In this document: positions 705-20,029 of the stretch, in pieces
Layout of the letters: every line of letters begins with the position of its first letter
Numbering within the stretch: the first letter of the stretch is position 1
DNA from: a virus
Length of the DNA: 64,000 nt
Strand: one strand, 5' to 3'
Virus record (IMG/VR): IMGVR_UViG_3300048080_000657
Notes under the pieces: model-generated
The model's database searches: none
Told to the model about the DNA's origin: nothing
What the model saw: the letters and a program-made list of their open reading frames with translations, nothing else
Position numbers and translations under genes: made by a program

Positions 705-1049
705 ATGGCTAGGAGACCAAACCCCGTGGAAGAGAAACTTCCTTTGCAGCCCGGGGAGGCGGAAACAATCGCCACAGTCCACGGAAACGGCCACTCGAAG
801 TCGCCGTCTCTGGAAGAGACCGAGCAGATGATGCTTCAGGCTGCAGAAGAATGGGCGAGAGAGGCGGGACTCCAGCCTCCGCTCGATGTAATGAAACCCC
901 ATCGCGTCGAGTACCCGAGACAGGGGCATGGCTGGCAGGTGACCATCACCGAGAGGGAAGCGCGAAGGCGGATGGGCACGGCCGTCTTCGGATCGGATGG
1001 TCAGCGAAAAATGTGGACGATGGACACCGCTGGCGGAAGCTGTTGTTGA
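705..1049 (+). CDS. hypothetical protein
   Basis: ATG 705 in the 657..1049 frame; stop lies just before the next gene. Confidence 0.5.
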   Translation: MARRPNPVEEKLPLQPGEAETIATVHGNGHSKSPSLEETEQMMLQAAEEWAREAGLQPPLDVMKPHRVEYPRQGHGWQVTITEREARRRMGTAVFGSDGQRKMWTMDTAGGSCC

Positions 1050-1056
1050 GAAAACC

Positions 1057-3834
1057 ATGTCTAAGATCCTGCTCGGTTGTGCGGGGAAGAGGCCGGTTCA
1101 CATTGACCTGAAGACTCTTCTCACCACCCGAGGGCTTGTTCAGGCCTCCAGCGGCGGCGGCAAGAGCAGGACGCTTCGGCGCCTCGCCGAACAGTTGTTT
1201 GGAAAGGTCCAGACGTTCATCATCGACAAGGAGGGCGAGTTCCCCAGTCTGCGGGAGAAGTTTGGATACGTCCTTGTCGGGAAGGGCGGGGAGACGCCCA
1301 CGGACACGCGGTCGGCCGAACTCGTCTGCCACAAGCTCCTCCAACATGGCGCGTCCGCCGTATTTGATCTTTACGACCTGAAAGATCCAGACCGCCACCG
1401 ATGGGTGAGGCTGTTCCTCCACGCCCTCATGAACGCGCCGAAGAGCCTCTGGCGGCCGCTTGTCGTCATCGTGGATGAGGCGCACAGGTTCTGCATGGAT
1501 TCAGCGACGGACATTCTCACGCAGAAAGGCTGGAGGAAGTGGGATGAGGTCCATGCTGGCGACCTCATTGTTGCATACGATTTGACCAAGGAGACGTGCC
1601 TAGAAGAAGCAGTGCAACGGGTGATCATGCGGCCTTATGAAGGTGAAATGGTTGTGCTGCAAAGCGATGGAATTGATGCGTTGGTCACTCCAGATCATCG
1701 AGTAGTGTATAAAACGACCCAGAGAGGCATGGGTCGATATGGGAAAATGTATGGACCATTCCTCAGGGCGGCTTCGGAACTGCCGCAGTACATCCAAATA
1801 CCTATAAGCCCAGGGCTTTCTGGAAAAGGCATCGCAGATTTGACCTTAGAGCATTGCCATCTTCTCGGGTGGATTATTACGGATGGCAATTTCACCGGAG
1901 GAAACCGAAAGAAGTATATTTCTATAGAGCAATCGGTCGCCACCGTAAAGGGATCGGAGTCCACCGTCGCTGTACTCGATAGGCTGACAGACAAGTGTAA
2001 TGCTCTCAGTGTTTACGATCGTCAACCAAGGATCACTACTTCCAAAACGGGGAGAGCCATACGGCATAGCCAGACGCGCACTTATTACCTTGGACAGAAA
2101 CTCTCCGAAGAACTGCTCAGGTGGTTGGGCTCTGATATCCACCGCATTCCGAGACGGTTGTTAATCGAAGGGTCCCGTAAGCAACTCGAGGCTCTTCTTC
2201 AAGGCCTTCTCGAAGGGGATGGTACGCGCAGTAAACGTCAAGATCATGGTTGGAAAGGATGGATCACCTTTTATCCGGGCAATTCAGAAGCATTGGCGGA
2301 CGATTTCTTGGAACTGTGCGCTCGGTTTGGCATAAGTGCTTCTAAGGCATGGGTGCCCTCTATCAGGCAGTGGCATATTCATCTATCGCGAAGACGTTTT
2401 CATTATGTGAGGAAAACAGAGCGGAAGTTCTACAGTGGTATGACATGGGACGTCACCGTTCCTTCTGGCGCTTTTGTCGCACGTAGACACGGGAGAGTCT
2501 TCGTTACCGGGAACTGTCCGGAGAGGGGGCAGGGCGAAAGTGAAGCCTATGGGGCGATGATCGATCTCGCGACGGACGGGCGCAAAAGGGGGTTCGCCGC
2601 GGTCTACGCGACCCAGAGGCTCGGGAAGCTTTCAAAGAATGCGAGTGCCGAGCTCCTCAATCGTTTCGTCGGCCGGACCATCGAGGACATCGACGTCGAT
2701 AGGGCAGCCGATCTCCTCTCCGTTCGCCGTGCCGACCGGGTTGATTTCGAACACTGTCTCAAGACGCTCAAGCCCGGGCACTTCTGGTCCTTCGGCCAGG
2801 CGGTTTCTACAGAAAGGGTGCTCGTCTATGTCGGGCCGGTCGTGACGACGCATCCAGAGCCGGGCTCCCCCGCAGCCGCGGCCCTCCCGCCAACTCCACA
2901 GAAGGTGAAGGCGCTCCTCCCAAAGCTCGCGGATCTTCCGAAGCAAGCAGAAGAAAAGGCGAAGACCGAGGCCGAGCTCAGAGCCGAGATTTGTACACTC
3001 AAGGCACAGGTTGTCGCGCAGGGAAGGGAACGGGCGACCGCCGCGACCCCGAGGCCGGAGACAAAGAGGATCGAGATTCCGGTGGTCTCCGACGGGCAGA
3101 TTCGTCGCCTGGAACAGGCGCTGAAAAGAGCCGACGAGATCTCTGCGCGTGCCCTACAGGCGATAGGCAAGTTGACGCTTGAGGATTCCGCCAAGACGAT
3201 CCGGGCCGCGATCACCGAGGCGAGGTCGCTCGGGGCGGGGCGACCGGCGTCGACAGGCCCGTCAAGAGCGCTGACTCCGGCCCCGCGGCCGCCGATGAAA
3301 GCCGCAGCGCGTCCGATCCCGGTCGCGCCGGGCAACGGCAACGGACAGGATCTCATCGCCGGCGAGCGCAGGATGATCGAGATCCTCGCGCAGTTCTATC
3401 CCGGCACGCGGACTCGGTCGCAGCTCGGCGCGCTCGCCGGATACACCCCGAGTGGTGGCACGTTCGGGAATTACTTCGGACGCCTCAAACGTCTCGGCTA
3501 CATCCGCGAAAATGCGGACGGCTCTGTCTCCCTCAGCGTTGAGGGCCTAGACCTCTTCGGCGGACACCCGCCTACTGGCCCGAGGACATCTAGGGAGCTC
3601 ATCGATATGTGGCGTTCGAAGCTCCTCTCCGGCGAACGCAAGATGCTGGACGTCCTGGTGGAAACGTATCCGGACCCGATGACGCGCGAGGAGCTTGGCG
3701 AACACACCGGCTTCACGGCAACAGGAGGGACGTTCGGGAACTATCTCGGCACACTGCGCAGGAACGCGCTTGTGATTGTGGAGGGTGAGAATGTCAAAGC
3801 CGCAGACACGCTGTTCGAGCTCCAGAAAGTCTGA
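1057..3834 (+). CDS. HerA/FtsK-like (DUF87-type) ATPase with intein and two C-terminal winged-helix repeats
   Basis: Walker A (QASSGGGKS), Walker B (VVIVDEAH), DGRKRG..ATQR motif; duplicated GER(R/K)M....GGTFGNY units near the C-terminus. Confidence 0.85.
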   Translation: MSKILLGCAGKRPVHIDLKTLLTTRGLVQASSGGGKSRTLRRLAEQLFGKVQTFIIDKEGEFPSLREKFGYVLVGKGGETPTDTRSAELVCHKLLQHGASAVFDLYDLKDPDRHRWVRLFLHALMNAPKSLWRPLVVIVDEAHRFCMDSATDILTQKGWRKWDEVHAGDLIVAYDLTKETCLEEAVQRVIMRPYEGEMVVLQSDGIDALVTPDHRVVYKTTQRGMGRYGKMYGPFLRAASELPQYIQIPISPGLSGKGIADLTLEHCHLLGWIITDGNFTGGNRKKYISIEQSVATVKGSESTVAVLDRLTDKCNALSVYDRQPRITTSKTGRAIRHSQTRTYYLGQKLSEELLRWLGSDIHRIPRRLLIEGSRKQLEALLQGLLEGDGTRSKRQDHGWKGWITFYPGNSEALADDFLELCARFGISASKAWVPSIRQWHIHLSRRRFHYVRKTERKFYSGMTWDVTVPSGAFVARRHGRVFVTGNCPERGQGESEAYGAMIDLATDGRKRGFAAVYATQRLGKLSKNASAELLNRFVGRTIEDIDVDRAADLLSVRRADRVDFEHCLKTLKPGHFWSFGQAVSTERVLVYVGPVVTTHPEPGSPAAAALPPTPQKVKALLPKLADLPKQAEEKAKTEAELRAEICTLKAQVVAQGRERATAATPRPETKRIEIPVVSDGQIRRLEQALKRADEISARALQAIGKLTLEDSAKTIRAAITEARSLGAGRPASTGPSRALTPAPRPPMKAAARPIPVAPGNGNGQDLIAGERRMIEILAQFYPGTRTRSQLGALAGYTPSGGTFGNYFGRLKRLGYIRENADGSVSLSVEGLDLFGGHPPTGPRTSRELIDMWRSKLLSGERKMLDVLVETYPDPMTREELGEHTGFTATGGTFGNYLGTLRRNALVIVEGENVKAADTLFELQKV
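1492..2514 (+). mobile_element. intein with LAGLIDADG homing endonuclease (341 aa)
   Basis: Begins Cys (CMDSATDILT) just after Walker B, ends VTGN followed by Cys+1; LLGWIITDG and LLQGLLEGDG motifs; visibly more AT-rich than the flanks. Confidence 0.9.
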
Positions 3835-3870
3835 TCGGAGTATGGACCTGGCCTTGGAGAGAGGGTAGAA

Positions 3871-4659
3871 GTGGGGAAGGGCACGAGGATAAGCTGGGCC
3901 ACAGATTCGCTGTCAACCCACTGGGGATGCACTGAAGTTTCGCAGTCGCCTGCATGCGAACATTGCTACGCCCGCGAGTTCTCGAAGCGGCTTGGCTATG
4001 ATCTATGGGGCAACGACAAGCCAAGGCGCTTCTTCGGGGACGAGCACTGGAACGAGCCGAGGAAGTGGAACGCCATCGCGGAGCGCACCGGCCAGCGCAG
4101 GCGCATCTTCGTCAACTCGATGTCCGACACGTTCGAGGGACGCCGTGATCTCGACCCGGTGCGTGAGAGGCTCTGGAGGCTCATCCCGGAGACCCCGTAC
4201 TGTGACTACCTTTTGCTCACAAAGCGGCCGCAGAACATCCTTCGGATGGTACCGTCTGGGTGGCTCGACCGCTGGCCGGAGAACGTGTGGGCCGGGACCA
4301 CGGCAGAGACCCAGCGTTGGGCCGACATCCGCTTGCCTTTCATGGAGAAAGTGCCTGCGCCGGTGATCTTCGTGTCTGCCGAGCCGCTCCTGGAGCAGCT
4401 GGATCTCCGGCCGTACCTGCACTTCGTGAGATGGTGCCTTATAGGCGGAGAATCGGGCCACGGAGCGAGGCTGATGGAGAAGGCGTGGGCGCTTGACCTC
4501 ATCGCACAGTGTCGAGAGGCGAAAGTCGCGGCGCACTTCAAGCAAAAGGGCGCCGTGTTGGCACGGGAGATGGGCTGCAAGGACAAAGCCGGGAAAGACC
4601 CGAGCGAGTGGTCAGAGGATCTGCGGACCCAACAATTCCCTGAAGCGGCTATTGCATGA
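3871..4659 (+). CDS. DUF5131 (phage Gp37/Gp68) family protein
   Basis: TRISWATD..WGCTEVS..CEHCYA, IFVNSMSD, LLTKRP, FVSAEPLL, IGGESG motifs. Confidence 0.88.
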   Translation: MGKGTRISWATDSLSTHWGCTEVSQSPACEHCYAREFSKRLGYDLWGNDKPRRFFGDEHWNEPRKWNAIAERTGQRRRIFVNSMSDTFEGRRDLDPVRERLWRLIPETPYCDYLLLTKRPQNILRMVPSGWLDRWPENVWAGTTAETQRWADIRLPFMEKVPAPVIFVSAEPLLEQLDLRPYLHFVRWCLIGGESGHGARLMEKAWALDLIAQCREAKVAAHFKQKGAVLAREMGCKDKAGKDPSEWSEDLRTQQFPEAAIA

Positions 4660-5019
4660 GCTTTGTCTGCCAAAGGTGCCACGACGCGACATGCGTCCGC
4701 GAACACTCGACCACGCTGAGCGGCCGTTGCCACTGCTGCGGCAGGGGGGCTGAGTGTATCGACTGTCCAAGCCTGCCCGATCCGGTCCGCAGGGGGCGGG
4801 AGCTTCAACTTCAGCGGTACAGGAACACGACGCGTGTCGAGTACCCGTCGAGAAGGGCCGAAGCCTGATGAAAAATAAAAGGAGCCAGGCTACCGCATCA
4901 AGGAGAGGCAGCCTGGCCCTGGAGAGAGGGCAATTCCATTCCCACTGTCAGGATGATACGATGGGGGTGGCGCTGACACAATAGCGGTCTTATGGGTGGA
5001 GAGAGAACTCGGAGACAGA

Positions 5020-5625
5020 ATGGCGGAACTCTACATCGATCTTGAAACGACCGGGCTACCTCCCTACAATGCGCACGTTGTAGAGGTCGCCGCAGTGGCG
5101 ATCGGCGAAGGGGGGACGGAGATCGGCCATTTCGCGACGTTCGTGAACCCGGGCTCGGCCGCGCTTCTCGGCGCGGATCCCAAGGCCATGGCGGTCCATG
5201 GGATTCCTGTCCCGGACATCGAATCTGCGCCACCCACGGAGCAGGTCGCACGCGATTTGGCAGCCTTTCTCGAGACCCACGCTGGCACACGGCTCCATGC
5301 CTTCAACAACCAGTTCGAGGCCGGGATCCTGACGTGCCCGCCATGGGCGGTCGAGCCGGCCCGCTGGGGAGAGTGCGTGATGCTCGCGGCCATGCGCGTG
5401 ATAGGCGCTGCGGGGGCGCTCCGGAGGCGGACCACCGGCGACCTCAAGTGGCCCACGCTCGACGAGGCGGCCTCCTTTTTCGGCGTGCCGCGGATGGTGC
5501 GTCACCGGGCCCTCGACGACGCGCGGACCACGGCGCGCGTGCATCGTGCGCTTCTCCTTCGTGATGAAAAAGAGGAGGAATCGTTGTCGGACGAGGTGAG
5601 GCTCCTGATGGAGGACGGCCTGTGA
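5020..5625 (+). CDS. DEDDh 3'-5' exonuclease (DnaQ-like)
   Basis: IDLETTG (ExoI), AFNNQFE (ExoII), HRALDDA (ExoIII). Confidence 0.88.
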   Translation: MAELYIDLETTGLPPYNAHVVEVAAVAIGEGGTEIGHFATFVNPGSAALLGADPKAMAVHGIPVPDIESAPPTEQVARDLAAFLETHAGTRLHAFNNQFEAGILTCPPWAVEPARWGECVMLAAMRVIGAAGALRRRTTGDLKWPTLDEAASFFGVPRMVRHRALDDARTTARVHRALLLRDEKEEESLSDEVRLLMEDGL

Positions 5626-6119
5626 TGCCGCCCGGAGATTCCCCGTTCACGCCCCCTGAGAACCTGGAGGCGGCGAAGAAGGGCTGCGGCGGGTGTGGCG
5701 GTCCGGTGCGCATCCCCCCGGCGGGAGACCCCTTTTCGGACGGTCCGCAGAAGGGGCGCTATCGCTGCGCGGAATGCTGGACGCTCTGGTGGAACGAGCA
5801 TCCCGGGGATCTCGTCGACGAAGAGACGAGGGAGTACGTCGCTGCGGAGGCCTCGAAGATCCGCATTCGCCGGGCCCACGAGGCGCGCATCAAGGAGCGC
5901 CATGGACTGACGCTCGGCCAGGCGGAGATCCTCTTCGAGGACGGAGAGAGCCGCGTCTTCCTGACGGAGCGCGGGACGCTCCTCTTCAGCATCGACTGTC
6001 CCGAGCACTTCTCGCCAGACGAGTTCGACCCGGACCGGTTGCGCACGCTCGTTCGCGCGCTCTCGGTCGTGCACCAGAAGTTCCCGGACTTCGGTCTTGC
6101 CCGCGTTGGTGCGGAATGA
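5622..6119 (+). CDS. hypothetical protein with two CxxC pairs
   Basis: CGGC and CAEC; stop/start overlap with the previous gene. Confidence 0.6.
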   Translation: MMPPGDSPFTPPENLEAAKKGCGGCGGPVRIPPAGDPFSDGPQKGRYRCAECWTLWWNEHPGDLVDEETREYVAAEASKIRIRRAHEARIKERHGLTLGQAEILFEDGESRVFLTERGTLLFSIDCPEHFSPDEFDPDRLRTLVRALSVVHQKFPDFGLARVGAE

Positions 6120-6340
6120 CGACGGCCGACAGGGATGCCGTCGATCTCAAGGGCGACCTGGTATGGCTCGTCCACTCCGGATTCTCCGTGGCGGTGAGAA
6201 CTGTCCCGCCCGGGAGGGCTTTCCATGTCCGCGCCGTGAGGGAGGAGCGTCCGCTCGAGGCGGATGATGAGAAGATCGAGGCGGCGGTTGCAAAGGTGCG
6301 CCGCGCTGCAGAGCGACGGATGAGCGAGGGGCTTGCCTGA
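6116..6340 (+). CDS. hypothetical protein
   Basis: ATGA overlap with the upstream stop. Confidence 0.55.
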   Translation: MTTADRDAVDLKGDLVWLVHSGFSVAVRTVPPGRAFHVRAVREERPLEADDEKIEAAVAKVRRAAERRMSEGLA

Positions 6341-6342
6341 GC

Positions 6343-6371
6343 TTGACCTCGCGTGGTACACCTGGTATACT
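6343..6371 (+). promoter_or_regulatory. sigma70-type promoter with operator-like box
   Basis: TTGACC-17-TATACT; GTACAC-CTGG-TATAC overlaps the -10. Confidence 0.8.
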
Positions 6372-6636
6372 TCGGTATGCGCAGCCGGGTCGTATCCAAG
6401 ACGCGGTGCTCTTCTTCCGAGAGAAGGTATAATCTCCGTATGGCGAAGCTGCCGAACTACAAGGGCTCGCTCCGTGCAGCACCCTGGGCGGAGATCCGGC
6501 TCACCGAGGAGAACAGGGAGTCGCTCCGGCGGGCGGCCGCGAGAGGCTGCGTGATTTGTGGCGCTGCCGGTTACCTGGGGAGCGGCCTCAAGGTCCAGGT
6601 CTGTGCCTGTGTGAACCGGAGGACCGAGGAGGCCTC

Positions 6637-6909
6637 ATGAAGGAGTTCTTCAGCATCCTCGCCGGCGCCGCTCTTGGCGCAGGCCTGTATTCGCTCGCGA
6701 AGCAGCGCCCTCTGGCGGAGGGGAACATCCTGCGCATGGGAGGCCTGCTCATGTTAGGCGATACCGTGGGCGAGTTGGCGTCTTGGGCCACCAAGGCGAT
6801 GAAGGAGGCCGAGGCGGCGGCGCTGCCCGGCCCGAAAGAGTGGAGCCCTAGAACCGGTAGGTGCCGGTGCAGCCACGCGAGGGCGTACTCCGGCGTCACC
6901 TTTCGGTAA
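6637..6909 (+). CDS. small membrane protein
   Basis: Hydrophobic N-terminus FFSILAGAALGAGLYSL. Confidence 0.55.
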   Translation: MKEFFSILAGAALGAGLYSLAKQRPLAEGNILRMGGLLMLGDTVGELASWATKAMKEAEAAALPGPKEWSPRTGRCRCSHARAYSGVTFR

Positions 6910-6912
6910 CGG

Positions 6913-7018
6913 TGTCACCGCATTGTGGCAGGAGTCCTTCATGGAGACAGCCTGAATCCGTGATTCCGTCGCAGAAACCGTGACCGGGGAGTGTCACCGC
7001 ATTGGCCTTGGAATTGCA
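6913..7018 (+). promoter_or_regulatory. sigma54-like -24/-12 promoter with paired TGTCACCGCATT boxes
   Basis: TGGC-N7-TTGCA at 7003-7018; 12-bp boxes at 6913 and 6992 (79 bp apart). Confidence 0.65.
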
Positions 7019-7054
7019 TGTACCTCTAGGGTCATCTGACCTAAGGAGGATAAT

Positions 7055-7375
7055 ATGAGTGGACGCATCGCCATCAACGTCTGCGACATGACGTACTTCA
7101 CGGACCCGAAGATGCCGATCCAGCCGGCGGCTCTTCTTCTCCAGGACTTCATCACGAAGGACAGCCCCACGGTGAACATCAACACCATGCTGGATTCGGG
7201 CGCCGTGATCCTCGACGGCCCTGCCTCGCAGGACGAGAAGCGGGTGAATGCCCTCGTCGAGCTCCTCCAGACCGTCCTCGGCCCGAAGAAGATCGGTCGG
7301 CGGGTGCGGTGCTACCAGGAAGGGCCGCGGGGTGGTTGGTCTGAGATCAGCGTCCGTTCAAAGGCGACGGTCTGA
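7055..7375 (+). CDS. hypothetical protein
   Basis: Strong SD AAGGAGG upstream of the ATG. Confidence 0.7.
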   Translation: MSGRIAINVCDMTYFTDPKMPIQPAALLLQDFITKDSPTVNINTMLDSGAVILDGPASQDEKRVNALVELLQTVLGPKKIGRRVRCYQEGPRGGWSEISVRSKATV

Positions 7376-7386
7376 AGGAGGGGTCG

Positions 7387-8322
7387 ATGAACGATAAGAA
7401 GAGGCCGCTCGTGGTCAGCTACGGGATGGGCGTTGACTCGACGGCCATGCTCGTGGGCTTGGCCCAGCGCGGGATCAGGCCCGACCTCATCCTCTTTGCC
7501 GACACGGGCGGAGAGAAGGTACAGACCTACCAGTACCTGGAGACGATGAACGCGTGGCTTCGCGCGCACGGGATGCCGGAGGTCACCGTGCTCCAGTACG
7601 CCGCCCGCGACTTCAAGAACTGGCCCGCCTATCACACGCTCGAGGAGAACTGCCTGACGAATGGGACGCTTCCGAGCGAGGCGTTCGGGTTCGGATCCTG
7701 CTCGATGAAGTGGAAGCAGCAGCCCCAGAACAAGTTCATGAAGACGTGGGCCCCTGCGGTCGAGGCTTGGAAGGCCGGGCTCAAGGTCAGGAAGGCCATC
7801 GGCTACGACGCCTCCCCGGCCGACCAGAAGCGCCGCTGCTCCGCCGACAAGATCACGTTCAAGGTGAACGCGGCGGACGCCAAGCGCTACGACTTCTGGT
7901 ATCCGCTCCAGGAGTGGGGCTGGACCAGACTCGACTGCGTCCGTGAGATCGCGCAGGCCGGGCTCCCGGTGCCGGTGAAGAGTGCGTGCTTCTACTGCCC
8001 GAACATGACCAAGCAGGAGGTCCGCGAGCTGCCTGCGAATCAACTCCAGCGGATCGTGGTCATGGAGGCCCGAGCTCTGCCGCGCCTGACCAAGATCGAG
8101 GGGCTGTGGCGGAACGGCTGCAAGGGGACGCGAGGCGGCGATCCGAAGCCGGGCCGCATGACGACCTTCATCCGCGACGAGCAGCTCCTCCCGGCGGAGG
8201 AGATCGCGCGGCTCGAGGCCGTGGTTCCGAAGGAGATCGTCCTCAGGAACGAGGTGAAGGCCTCTGGCCAGGAAGTCCCGACGTGGAGTGAGTTCTTCGA
8301 TATGGTCGGGATCAAGGCATAG
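7387..8322 (+). CDS. PAPS-reductase-like (PP-loop) protein
   Basis: VVSYGMGVDSTAML PP-loop variant; KSACFYCP. Confidence 0.8.
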   Translation: MNDKKRPLVVSYGMGVDSTAMLVGLAQRGIRPDLILFADTGGEKVQTYQYLETMNAWLRAHGMPEVTVLQYAARDFKNWPAYHTLEENCLTNGTLPSEAFGFGSCSMKWKQQPQNKFMKTWAPAVEAWKAGLKVRKAIGYDASPADQKRRCSADKITFKVNAADAKRYDFWYPLQEWGWTRLDCVREIAQAGLPVPVKSACFYCPNMTKQEVRELPANQLQRIVVMEARALPRLTKIEGLWRNGCKGTRGGDPKPGRMTTFIRDEQLLPAEEIARLEAVVPKEIVLRNEVKASGQEVPTWSEFFDMVGIKA

Positions 8323-8363
8323 GACGAGACGAAATAGTCACGAAAGACTCGAAAGGTGACACG

Positions 8364-9146
8364 ATGAACCTGAACGACTACGACCTGATCTTGGTGAACA
8401 CGAGCGGAGGCAAAGACTCCTCCGTAGCGGCGTTCGTCGTCACCCGCATGGCCGAGGAGTGGGACGTCAAGAGCCGCATCGTCCTAGTCCACGCCACCTT
8501 CGCCGAGGAATGGGCTGGGACCGTAGACCTCGTTCGGAAGCAGGCCGAGCAACTTGCGCTCCCGCTCGTTGTCGTGGAGCGCGGCGAAGACCTCCTCAAA
8601 TACGTGGAGCGCCGTGGGATGTGGCCCTCCTCCCAGCAAAGGTACTGCACAAGCGACTTCAAGCGGGCGCCCATCGACAAGGTCATCACGGCCCGAGCGC
8701 CCGGACTCGACAAGCCCGCAAAGGTTCTCAACGTCATGGGAATACGCGCCGATGAATCGCCCGCCAGGGCGAAGCGCCAGGCTTTCAAGCATGACGAGCG
8801 CCGCACGAACGGCCGCCGCATCGTGGACGAGTGGCTCCCCATCTTCAGCATGACTCTGGAGCGCGTGTGGGCCATCATCAAGGCGAACGGCATCCCGGTT
8901 CATCCGGCCTACGCCCTAGGAATGCCGCGCCTCTCGTGTGTCTTCTGCATCTTCGCCCCGAAGGCTGCGCTCGTCTTGGCTGGCAAGCACAACCCTGAAC
9001 TCCTCCGGCGGTACGCCGAGGTCGAGAAGAAGATCGGCCATCAGTTTCGCGGCGAGCCCGGAAAGAAGGGCGGCCTGTCGATGGCCGAGGTGTTAGATGC
9101 CGTAGAAGCTGGGGCATCCGGACCTGTTCCAGACTGGAAAATGTGA
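8364..9146 (+). CDS. phosphoadenosine-phosphosulfate reductase family protein
   Basis: NTSGGKDS, RYCTSDFK, GIRADES..R, RLSCVFCI. Confidence 0.88.
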   Translation: MNLNDYDLILVNTSGGKDSSVAAFVVTRMAEEWDVKSRIVLVHATFAEEWAGTVDLVRKQAEQLALPLVVVERGEDLLKYVERRGMWPSSQQRYCTSDFKRAPIDKVITARAPGLDKPAKVLNVMGIRADESPARAKRQAFKHDERRTNGRRIVDEWLPIFSMTLERVWAIIKANGIPVHPAYALGMPRLSCVFCIFAPKAALVLAGKHNPELLRRYAEVEKKIGHQFRGEPGKKGGLSMAEVLDAVEAGASGPVPDWKM

Positions 9147-11425: not shown

Positions 11426-12539
11426 GGATGACGGGTCCCCAGGTGGGGCGCCGTCGTACTGCAGCAGCTGCGACAAGTTCGTCCGCGATGGCGCCGGCAA
11501 CCAGGAGCGAACGCCGCGGGGCAGGATCCTCAGGTTCTGCTGGGTGTGCTGGAAGAGGCGATGCGAGGCTGCGTCTGGGAAGAGTACGCGATAGGGATAA
11601 AACGACCATGAAACGCCGCAAGGTCTGGAAGCAATGCGACGGCTGTGGGCGCCGGGAGAAACTCGAAGGCGGGGTGCGCCATTGGTGCAAGTGCCACCCC
11701 GCAGGATTCGTGATGATTCCCGACGTGAGCCGTCAGCTCGCGGCCAGGGCTGTTGGGATGATGTGTGGGTTCGTGCGCAAGGAGGACAGATGAGCGTGCT
11801 GGGAGAGCCGTATCCGCACGACGGCGGCTGCTCGGAATGCCGCTCGCGCCAAGTCTGCAACGTCTGCGGCTACCTGCTCTCGGGAGGGGTCTGCACGAAT
11901 GGGCGATGCTTGTTCTGCCACGGCAGAGTGTGTACGCCCGGTGGGGAAACCGCCCCCGGTCACGGCTTCGGATCGCGTGGTGCCGCCGTGTTGGCGAGCT
12001 ACGAGATGCAGTCGCGTTAGTGGAGATTCATGAGATGAAACCTTACCTGTGGTGCCCGCACAAGGCTTGCGATGTCTACAAGTCTCCAGAGCAACTGTGC
12101 GACGTTTGCGAGGCGGTACGTCTTGAGGTTCGCACCGCCGTTGAGATGAACCTCGGCGAGGCACGAAAGAACATCCTGATCACGCTTCAAGGGCAGATGG
12201 ACAGAGTGATGAAGTCTGGTCTTTAGCTTCGATACGGGACTGAACACAATGATGATCTCGAAACCGGACGGCCATGAGCAGTGCTCTGTATCCACCGGAA
12301 TCTGTGATCGCCTTACGTTCGGTCGCGGCACCTTAGATTCCAACGGCTACTGGGCGATCCCCTGTGGCGAATGCGCCAGAAACTTCGAGAACGCCAATCC
12401 AAAGTACGGGGAATGTTGGCCTACCAAAAGCGATACTAGGTTATGTCCTCTGTGCGGCAGGACACGAGGGCTTAGGGCCTGCCCCTGTCATTGATGGCTT
12501 CATCGGTGAAATGGGATTGCCCACTGAAAGGACGGTCGG

Positions 12540-18654: not shown

Positions 18655-18797
18655 GGTGGATTGAAATAACTCACGGCGAGAATGGCTCCAACGGCAAGGA
18701 TTGAAACGATGCGACCACGCCGCGAGGCATCCCGCTAGTTGGAAAGAGAAAGCGCGGATTGAAACGGCGACATCGAGGCGGAGATCGTGGATAGAAT
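18655..18797 (+). repeat. cluster of GGATTGAAA(C/T) CRISPR-repeat 3' ends, highly degenerate
   Basis: Copies at 18658, 18698, 18756 and GGATAGAAT at 18789; irregular spacing. Confidence 0.5.
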
Positions 18798-18841
18798 GTC
18801 GTGGATGTGGCCTTACGTGAAACCTTGATAGGAGGGACCCC

Positions 18842-19360
18842 ATGAGCAGGATGCTGGTCGTGATGGTGGCAGGGTTGTTCATGTTTCAGGGCTGTTCCAC
18901 AGTCCGAGACATCCCCGACGAGGACCTCGCCCGTGGGATCAGGACGGCGGCGCGGGGCGCAGCGCAATATGGCCTCGGATACGTGCTCAACAAGGAGCCG
19001 GCCAAGGCTGCGGCGGTAGCAGACGGCGCCCGCCTGGCGGTGAAGGCCCTGCGGGAGAACGTGATTCCTGCCCTCTCGGGATCATCGACGCAGGAGGTTC
19101 TCCGCTCGGCCGTGGAGACGGCACTGGATGAGCTGAGCAAGAAACTGACCCCGTCCGTGGTCCTGGCCGTCCAGCTCGCGCTGGATGTCGTTGCAGCCAA
19201 CGTGACGCTGCCCGTCAACCCGGCCGACCGCCTGAGCGACCGAACGAAGGGAGCACTCTTGGCACTCTTCCAGGGACTGGCCGACGGGCTCGAGGCGGGG
19301 GCATCGCTCGCCCCCGTGCGAGACACGCCGCCGGCGAAGCTGTTCTGGCCGAAGAACTGA
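18842..19360 (+). CDS. predicted lipoprotein
   Basis: Signal peptide with lipobox FQG|C. Confidence 0.7.
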   Translation: MSRMLVVMVAGLFMFQGCSTVRDIPDEDLARGIRTAARGAAQYGLGYVLNKEPAKAAAVADGARLAVKALRENVIPALSGSSTQEVLRSAVETALDELSKKLTPSVVLAVQLALDVVAANVTLPVNPADRLSDRTKGALLALFQGLADGLEAGASLAPVRDTPPAKLFWPKN

Positions 19361-19368
19361 AGACAAAG

Positions 19369-19587
19369 GTCATCCGCGGACGGTCGCGTGGATTGAAACT
19401 TCTCTCACGAGGGACAGCATGTGGAGATCCGCTCTGTTGATCCATTACCCAAGTGGGACGTGGATTGAAACGACGACCCTCCGGACTACGACTACTGGTG
19501 CTCCATGATTCAAGCAGGGCGTGGATTGAAACGGAGACCACCTTGGCGTGATCACGGAGCGTATCGCGTCGCTCCCCCTGGAGATCG
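19369..19587 (+). CRISPR. degenerate type I-C-like mini-array (3 repeats plus 1 partial), no cas genes nearby
   Basis: CGTGGATTGAAAC ends at 19399, 19471, 19532; 35 nt later GTCGCTCCCC (typical I-C repeat start) at 19568. Confidence 0.6.
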
Positions 19588-19609
19588 TTCCTGATACAAT
19601 CCAGATTGG

Positions 19610-20029
19610 ATGAAATGCTCAGGTTGTGCGAAGGAAGTGGACCCGAAGACCGAGGGCATCGAGCTCTGGGGGTCCTGGTTCTGCTCGGCTTGCTTCATCG
19701 GCCGCTCCCAGGGACTACATCGCGAGCTCACGCCGGAGGATGTAGAGTTGCTCAAGCTGATAGGGAGGGAACTGGCAGGCCTCCTGCCGGCGGATCTCCT
19801 CGAGATGATCTTGGCCGGCTACTACAAGCGGACGACGGGCCTTTCGACGCCACCGCCCAAGATGGAGACGGAGCGGTGCATTGGAGAGCTCCAGAGGATC
19901 ACGGCGTTCGCTTGCTTCAGGCAGGTTCTGAACCTGCTCAAGACCTGGCAGGACATGTTCTCGGGTTTCGTCCAGGAACAGGAGCAAGAGATCAGAGAGA
20001 AGATCCGGCGCCTAACGGAAGGGGAATAG
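19610..20029 (+). CDS. Zn-finger hypothetical protein
   Basis: CSGC...CSAC; extended -10 TGATACAAT at 19592. Confidence 0.65.
   Translation: MKCSGCAKEVDPKTEGIELWGSWFCSACFIGRSQGLHRELTPEDVELLKLIGRELAGLLPADLLEMILAGYYKRTTGLSTPPPKMETERCIGELQRITAFACFRQVLNLLKTWQDMFSGFVQEQEQEIREKIRRLTEGE

Follow-up and report, generated by a model that had tools for sequence, protein, structure and literature searches.

The window analyzed here is a 64-kb stretch of a 216,145-bp metagenomic contig. It carries genes of phage type, encoding among others a DNA methylase, a T4-like RNA ligase, an SNF2 helicase, and a DUF1643 protein, and both GC skew and AT skew of its plus strand are uniform. Adjacent genes mostly abut or overlap, and two noncoding gaps of 189 and 249 nt bracket a lipoprotein-like gene. 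The 13-mer CGTGGATTGAAAC was found three times without mismatch on the downstream side of this gene (19387 to 19399, 19459 to 19471, and 19520 to 19532), and GTCGCTCCCC, which occurs exactly only once in the window, starts at 19568, 35 nt past the third copy. These positions reproduce the original prediction, which had described three units ending at 19399, 19471, and 19532 with periods of 72 and 61 nt and the second sequence 35 nt beyond them. The feature is larger than stated there, however. The core GGATTGAAA is also present at 18658, 18698, and 18756, upstream of the lipoprotein gene, and this second cluster (cluster 1, 18655 to 18765), together with decayed copies at 18786 to 18823, belongs to it too. 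The features are as follows, with scores and E values from the type I-C covariance model described below.

18655 to 18667, plus strand: cluster 1 unit 1, handle only, ending in GAAAT; starts 3 nt past the stop codon of the upstream 243-aa gene
18695 to 18707, plus strand: cluster 1 unit 2, a handle-only copy 40 nt past unit 1
18738 to 18765, plus strand: cluster 1 unit 3, a decayed repeat with both ends kept (GTTGG ... GCGCGGATTGAAAC); 18.0 bits, E = 0.006
18786 to 18823, plus strand: decayed handle copies at 18786 to 18798 (10 of 13 positions identical), 18800 to 18812 (8 of 13), and 18816 to 18823 (CGTG..AAAC)
18842 to 19360, plus strand: lipoprotein-like gene, 172 aa, with a signal peptide and an FQGC lipobox; lies between the clusters, context only
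19383 to 19399, plus strand: R1 of cluster 2, a 17-nt mini-repeat in which GTCG is joined directly to CGTGGATTGAAAC; 24.4 bits, E = 6e-5
19400 to 19435, plus strand: S1, spacer-like, 36 nt, a canonical I-C length, bounded by model matches
19436 to 19471, plus strand: R2, in the window a decayed repeat with only its ends kept; 19.7 bits
19472 to 19497, plus strand: S2, spacer-like, 26 nt, short and of a size seen in regulatory crRNA-like guides
19498 to 19532, plus strand: R3, a decayed repeat with 4 of 6 stem pairs kept and the loop enlarged to 13 nt; 18.3 bits, E = 0.005
19533 to 19567, plus strand: S3, spacer-like, 35 nt, preceded by an exact handle and followed by a repeat 5′ half that is intact
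19568 to 19599, plus strand: R4, the terminal repeat, with a predicted CTCC/GGAG hairpin and a decayed 3′ handle
19610 to 20029, plus strand: downstream zinc-ribbon gene, 139 aa, into which the array would be read through

Clustering of the units is not explained by chance. The core GGATTGAAA occurs six times in 64 kb compared to 0.56 expected, without a single copy outside the two intergenic gaps, which together span about 440 nt. When up to two mismatches were allowed, the 13-mer was found six times compared to 1.5 expected, and none of 100 shuffles reached six. In cluster 2, the 13-mer is exact in R1, R2, and R3, and a 9- to 10-nt core is present in all six units of the window. Four units also share a similar G(G/A)NGAC start immediately after the motif. 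Read from 5′ to 3′, cluster 2 consists of a hairpin-deleted mini-repeat, a 36-nt spacer, a decayed repeat, a 26-nt spacer, a decayed repeat, a 35-nt spacer, and the terminal repeat. Unit periods across the two clusters are 40, 58, 72, and 61 nt, followed by the 35-nt spacer, none of them the regular I-C period of 65 to 68 nt (repeats of 32 to 33 nt with spacers of 33 to 37 nt), and among the spacer-like segments only S1 and S3 have a canonical I-C length. S3 is the only complete crRNA-shaped unit.

In type I-C systems, the 3′ end of the repeat, ...GCGTGGATTGAAAC, yields the 11-nt 5′ handle of the crRNA. When 185,579 species genomes were scanned for the 18-nt 3′ end of the R2 repeat found in a sister contig (L028, see below), more than 120 stretches matched, mostly arrays with 66- to 67-nt periods, and the 18-mer proved to be the exact 3′ end of 32- to 33-nt repeats in more than 100 bacterial genomes. 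The bacterial consensus repeats are 31 to 33 nt long and consist of GTCGC, a G+C-rich stem, a 4- to 5-nt loop, a return stem, and G plus TGGATTGAAAC. A covariance model was then built from 48 bacterial type I-C repeats with varied stems, in all of which the handle columns are invariant, and was run unfiltered on the window and two sister contigs. Across the 64 kb, matches with E < 1 were found only at the units described here, and nothing else scored better than E = 2. The R2 repeat of L028 (positions 1015 to 1049) scored 37.4 bits (E = 4.5e-9) with all six modeled pairs formed and is thus a near-canonical I-C repeat. Because the model finds only these units in the window and this sister repeat is nearly perfect, derivation of the units from type I-C CRISPR repeats is secure, and the I-C ancestry put forward in the original prediction is supported both by the bacterial 3′-end matches and by the 48-repeat model. 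The sequence GGATTGAAAC also terminates 37-nt repeats of other CRISPR families; by its GCGTGG context and GTCGC starts, only cluster 2 is specifically type I-C. An Rfam scan of 17 to 21 kb returned neither CRISPR-DR nor any other family, and a tRNA scan returned nothing.

The 5′ halves of the repeats are in very different states. A GTCGC start with a 6- to 7-bp stem and a 4- to 5-nt loop is present in R2 of L028 and in the 5′ half of R4, whose first 13 nt are identical to those of bacterial I-C repeats, for example in the Desulfobacterium array of L044. In the window, R2 keeps its ends only, R3 keeps four of its six pairs, and in R1 the model alignment shows a precise deletion of the 15 hairpin positions. 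Cluster 1 units 1 and 2 retain nothing of a repeat 5′ half; unit 1 also has no hairpin in the predicted fold and was not reported by the model. The 5′ halves had been called divergent. They do differ between units, but they are not random, as the model aligns R2 and R3 as decayed full repeats and R1 as a hairpin-deleted one. Terminal repeats of CRISPR arrays often lose their handle, and that of R4 has decayed. As a separate observation, a form of the handle with one base deleted and T as its last base, TGGATGAAAT, is present at 19607 to 19616, 19 nt past the R4 5′ half, and shares bases with the start codon of the downstream gene; it may be a displaced R4 handle or may be due to chance.

Sister genomes were represented by two small contigs from one JGI sample (L028 and L029; JGI 3300048079). 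Over the region, L028 shares about 91% identity with the window, and it contains both clusters, with seven units compared to six in the window. Comparison of the two sequences established several features of the element. First, the handle is the conserved part. In the 9-nt handle cores the two genomes agree at all 54 positions, compared to 336 of 384 at other intergenic positions (Fisher P = 0.002), and the 9-mer is retained in all six or seven copies per genome, next to repeat 5′ halves that vary by unit or are unrecognizable. This bears out the earlier proposal that what persists here is the part of the repeat giving rise to the crRNA 5′ handle. Second, the units turn over. In cluster 1 of L028, one extra unit is present, such that two units with 46- and 45-nt segments replace the single 30-nt segment of the window, a pattern that would be expected from handle-to-handle recombination. 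The resulting L028 periods of 56, 55, and 58 nt correspond to spacers of 23 to 26 nt if the repeat is 32 nt long. Cluster 1 unit 3 is identical in the two genomes, as are the decayed copies at 18786 to 18823, whose presence means that handles can decay too. Third, divergence is unevenly distributed. S1 differs at 8 of 36 positions, the R2 5′ half at 7 of 22 aligned positions plus one indel, and S2 at 2 positions within 19472 to 19494, whereas S3 is identical at 35 of 35 positions and R4 at 31 of 32, so that S3 and R4 together carry 1 change in 67 nt. The differences concentrate in the 3′ part of S1 and the R2 5′ half, with 15 differences, mostly transitions, and one 1-nt indel over 59 positions. 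This patch (19420 to 19458 in the window, 1001 to 1036 in L028) differs far more than the rest of the cluster 2 gap. L028 has the canonical repeat there and the window version resembles the window's own R3, and from the sequences gene conversion is as likely an explanation of the patch as selection.

Hairpins behave differently from handles. Most have been lost in the window, the remaining predicted ones are weak or re-registered onto the handle, and none of those predicted in the window is conserved in L028, where only R2 keeps the canonical stem. A candidate set of handle-sequestering hairpins (ATCC/GGAT), predicted in four of the six window units, was rejected, as substitutions break them in L028. 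A coding explanation of the second gap was likewise discarded: its 28-codon frame is broken by the 1-nt indel in L028, and this indel together with the lack of called genes in the L028 gaps argues against coding.

Searches for partners of the array were carried out at several levels. Six-frame open reading frames of the 64-kb window gave no phmmer match, at E values up to 1, to the Cas3, Cas5d, Cas8c, and Cas7 proteins of the phage contig L156 (see below), and no I-C cas gene was recognized by Pfam among 10 window proteins or by NCBIfam among 8. The description of the array as Cas-less therefore holds within the 64-kb window of the 216-kb contig. The original prediction had also suggested comparing the inter-repeat segments with phages, the host, and this genome. 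No target was found, since the spacer-like segments have no protospacer in the window, in 155 fetched loci (L001 to L155), in INPHARED, or in IMG/VR, the last searched with every sixth base left free. When 13 spacer-like starts were combined with a TTC PAM and compared to 230 fetched, mostly CRISPR-bearing loci (1.67 Mb), 3 matches were obtained compared to about 0.5 expected, and none of the three lies at a cas promoter. The seed of S3 matched 94 times in 596 Gb of genomes, in every case without extension and never near a handle motif or a CRISPR locus. A match between a Brocadia contig (L078) and window positions 12122 to 12146 lies outside the L078 array, upstream of its first repeat, and was attributed to chance. 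Neither a sigma-70-like promoter between 17 and 20.5 kb nor a terminator near the units was detected, and TTGAAA was dismissed as a −35 box since no suitably spaced −10 box accompanies it and the promoter scan did not report it. Because neither was detected near the units, these would be transcribed by read-through.

Homologs of the lipoprotein (64% identical; L150 and L151) lie in other gene contexts without the units, and homologs of the zinc-ribbon gene at 65 to 70% identity, on other phage-like contigs, have no units upstream. Since these distant relatives of the flanking genes lack the units, the element is young or turns over fast, and its occurrence in the sequences compared is restricted to one narrow phage lineage. 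No intermediate relatives were available through the upstream 243-aa gene, whose homologs are at most 40% identical, and IMG/VR scans with two flanking proteins returned no relatives. None of the 27 IMG/VR loci with DUF1643 homologs contains the motif cluster, and blastn of the region and spacers against INPHARED gave noise only. No known acr gene was found near the units; the neighbors are unannotated proteins, a thioredoxin, and the DUF1643 protein. Of the 72 homologs of the zinc-ribbon protein, one is a stand-alone chromosomal gene in a Planctomycetota metagenome-assembled genome (L266), among PSCyt2, PSD1, and DUF1501 genes. Among 301 sampled Planctomycetota genomes, 2 have the gene, which hints weakly at the host; neither of the two yielded Cas8c or an array, in a Cas8c family search that was likewise silent in control genomes.

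IMG/VR and bacterial genomes were also scanned for three closely spaced handles. Two large phage contigs in IMG/VR (L156 and L157, about 57% G+C), unrelated to the window phage, carry the same handle CGTGGATTGAAAC in a 17-unit array. Its first 14 or so units are near-identical 36-nt repeats, and its distal end degenerates, with periods of 54 and 58 nt and different stems. Cas3, Cas5d, Cas8c, and Cas7 are encoded directly upstream of the array in L156, with no cas1, cas2, or cas4 between. Because L156 carries both the cas module and the array, phage-borne type I-C systems with this handle do exist. L156 is 125 kb long and estimated to be 24% complete; the locus lies at 1157 to 8586, and its counterpart in L157 is on the reverse strand. 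The last array units of both contigs have 22- to 26-nt spacers, and the seeds of these short trailing spacers matched nothing in their own loci. A further handle unit stands alone in L157, about 1.4 kb past the array, and positions 2 to 451 of L156 encode a Cas12f/TnpB-like C-terminal fragment.

In bacterial genomes, the three-handle scan returned 103 loci, mostly ordinary arrays with one or two short units. However, in some cases (L183, L238, L232, L201, and L257), whole arrays consist of truncated repeats that keep the 3′ 13 to 20 nt at a spacing of 23 to 60 nt. Truncation to the handle is thus recurrent in such arrays, which weakens any argument from anatomy alone. Many bacterial I-C arrays (L240, L230, L193, L179, L227, L241, and L218) have, at the first-listed end, two to four units with intact repeats and 4- to 28-nt spacers; these may be regulatory crRNA-like mini-arrays or fixed anchors. 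A viral contig with 42% G+C (L161, 5751 to 6760) contains an array of 37-nt repeats, several of them almost spacerless (periods of 33 to 41 nt).

The element is probably a phage counter-defense RNA of a known kind or the relic of one. Our preferred reading, to which we give somewhat less than an even chance, is a crRNA-like or decoy RNA array that exploits the Cas5c/Cascade of the host, as Racr and Cracr elements do. It was given the most weight because the handle is invariant, the S3 unit is preserved, and the two long noncoding gaps have been kept. Both clusters would then be one degenerate I-C-derived mini-array, split by or flanking the lipoprotein gene, promoterless, and transcribed within a long plus-strand message. 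Host Cas5c would recognize the conserved ...GTGGATTGAAAC, bind the RNA, and cut it where a hairpin remains. Its binding would nucleate Cas7 on guide-like RNAs that are useless to host immunity, and Cascade subunits would be diverted from host crRNAs, making the array a competitive RNA anti-CRISPR. The three crRNA-shaped units of cluster 2, with 36-, 26-, and 35-nt spacers, may also act as regulatory or targeting guides. Transcription, binding or processing by Cas5c, and any inhibition are predictions of this model.

The element resembles several known RNAs without coinciding with any. Like the Racrs (Camara-Wilpert et al. 2023, PMC10651486), which are phage-encoded repeat mimics, it has no cas genes nearby. 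One such mimic of viral origin, RacrIC1, inhibits type I-C and is cotranscribed with the gene upstream of it (PMC10651486), as would be required of the window units. Each Racr consists of a single unit whose stem-loop is intact, whereas the window and L028 have six to seven units plus decayed copies, in which most hairpins are lost and the handle alone is invariant. Solitary repeat units often lie just downstream of a promoter (PMC10651486). Neither a promoter of their own (scan of 17 to 20.5 kb) nor colocation with an acr gene (annotation of the neighbors), both marks of Racrs, was found for the window units, and the Cas-binding stem-loop is not preserved in the window. Phages also carry multiplexed degenerate-repeat arrays with short spacers, including two-spacer I-C arrays, and these viral arrays reprogram or sequester Cas complexes (bioRxiv 10.1101/2024.10.29.618823). 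With such Cracr arrays, and with the CreR/CreA mini-arrays of hosts (10.1101/2023.03.03.530964), our element shares degenerate repeats and spacer-like segments in what would be one transcription unit. The short spacers of Cracrs measure about 19 to 26 nt, compared to 26 nt for S2 and 23 to 26 nt for L028 cluster 1 if the repeat is 32 nt long. Unlike in Cracrs, S1 and S3 are of full spacer length, and cluster 1 units 1 and 2 have no recognizable repeat 5′ halves. Cracrs are defined by a PAM-flanked seed match to the host cas or creT promoter; none was found here in the seed searches described above. Virus-borne mini-CRISPR arrays, which act in virus-virus conflicts according to the works that cite them (PMC10651486 and 10.1101/2023.03.03.530964), are similarly small, without cas genes, set in the orientation of transcription, and ended by a degenerate terminal repeat, as far as they are described there. 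In those accounts their repeats are near identical and their spacers match related viruses, whereas the repeats of the window vary and its spacer-like segments gave no target. L156 and L157, with their phage-borne I-C array, have in common with the window the handle, the large phage with about 57% G+C, and the degenerate array end, but no cas gene was found in the window. The bacterial truncated-repeat arrays have the exact handle, a truncated or lost 5′ half, and a similar spacing; their units mostly keep additional bases of the repeat 3′ half and adjoin or sit inside arrays of full repeats, whereas the window units are phage borne with mutually unrelated flanks. The unusual aspect is the many-copy, hairpin-poor, handle-only form, and the kind of element is already known.

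Several results count against the preferred crRNA-like or decoy array. First, hairpins are mostly lost in the window, whereas in RacrIF1 the stem-loop is essential and a handle-only RNA is inactive (PMC10651486). Second, no promoter, target, seed match, or acr neighbor was found, and some cluster 1 handles have decayed. Third, bacterial arrays yield similar truncated units without known special function.

The main rival is that the element is a nonfunctional relic, either a piece of I-C array captured from a host or what was left after loss of a phage-borne I-C system, now decaying. In this explanation, which we regard as doubtful but well within reach, the handles look conserved because many units had lost all but their 3′ ends from the start and recombination re-copied the handles. 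It is a serious rival; bacterial arrays show the same truncated-repeat forms, retaining the 3′ 13 to 20 nt. The irregular units that end the L156/L157 array point the same way, as do the decayed handles at 18786 to 18823, the unit indel between the window and L028, which fits handle-to-handle recombination, and the lack of a target, promoter, or cas partner in the searches above. Simple decay, on the other hand, does not sit well with handles kept at every position between the two lineages even beside the most diverged patches, with six exact cores in the window amid sequence that is unrelated between units, with an intact crRNA-shaped unit made up of S3 and R4, or with two long gaps preserved among genes that mostly abut or overlap.

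The loss of hairpins could also be taken at face value. In type I-C, unlike in I-F, one and the same subunit, Cas5c, acts as the processing nuclease and binds the handle. Hairpin-less RNAs might then still capture Cas5c, so that the array would be a multicopy "handle sponge" in which the handle alone is selected. We consider this unlikely. It would be a hairpin-independent class of RNA anti-CRISPR outside the descriptions of Racr and Cracr, and because ATTGAAAC also ends 37-nt repeats of other families, such an RNA might blunt several CRISPR types.

Somewhat less probable still is a true targeting mini-array, in which S1 and S3 would be ordinary guides used by host Cascade and Cas3 against competing phages, plasmids, or host genes. 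Both segments are of a length canonical for I-C spacers, and S3, identical in both phages, lies between an exact 5′ handle and a hairpin-bearing repeat 5′ half; viral mini-arrays of this sort are on record in virus-virus conflicts, at least as cited in PMC10651486 and 10.1101/2023.03.03.530964. However, protospacers were not found in any of the four sequence sets searched, the repeats needed for processing of S1 and S2 have decayed in the window, and cluster 1 has no guide-sized units bounded by hairpins. We think it very unlikely that the array serves a Cas effector elsewhere on the 216-kb genome as the phage's own adaptation-less CRISPR system. L156 offers a precedent, a large phage contig with an I-C-like array and an interference module with no adaptation genes between, and about 150 kb of the source contig lie beyond the inspected window; but no cas homolog is present in the 64 kb, L156 and L157 are unrelated to the window phage, arrays normally abut their cas genes, and the repeats appear too decayed and varied for a working array. 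Finally, although the units stand on both sides of one gene, in the only gaps of any length in the vicinity, and four of them share the G(G/A)NGAC start, it is most improbable that the GGATTGAAAC copies have no CRISPR function and are exapted or coincidental sites at which a phage regulator of the lipoprotein and downstream genes binds, as the motif occurs nowhere else in 64 kb, the units grade into full I-C repeats (R2 of L028 and R4), their spacing is irregular (40 to 72 nt), and no sigma-70-like promoter was detected at them.

If the preferred crRNA-like or decoy array is active, RNA anti-CRISPRs and crRNA-like arrays would extend to a sediment phage that is very large, apparently lacks a tail, and has an uncultured host, and the type I-C handle, rather than the repeat hairpin, could be the selected part, which would inform how Cas5c recognizes RNA. 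If it is a relic, the locus would document that CRISPR arrays once moved between hosts and giant phages and would be a clean example of array decay through hairpin deletion, handle-to-handle recombination, and erosion of the terminal repeat. Active or not, the element offers through its repeat type a lead to the host, which may be sought among bacteria with a type I-C array (GTCGCTCCC...GGGAGCGTGGATTGAAAC), and such arrays are common in the sediment community.

Two minor observations were made along the way. Strict 60-nt tandem units, each ending in GGATTGAAAC, are present in three other IMG/VR contigs (L162, L159, and L160; 430, 38, and 48 kb). The intervening 47 nt are the same or mildly variable and are thus not CRISPR-like spacers; these units may belong to a tandem small-RNA or repeat family. 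In the window itself, positions 997 to 3834 encode a 945-aa HerA/AAA-type ATPase with a LAGLIDADG domain in the middle of the protein, which looks like an intein or a homing-endonuclease insertion.
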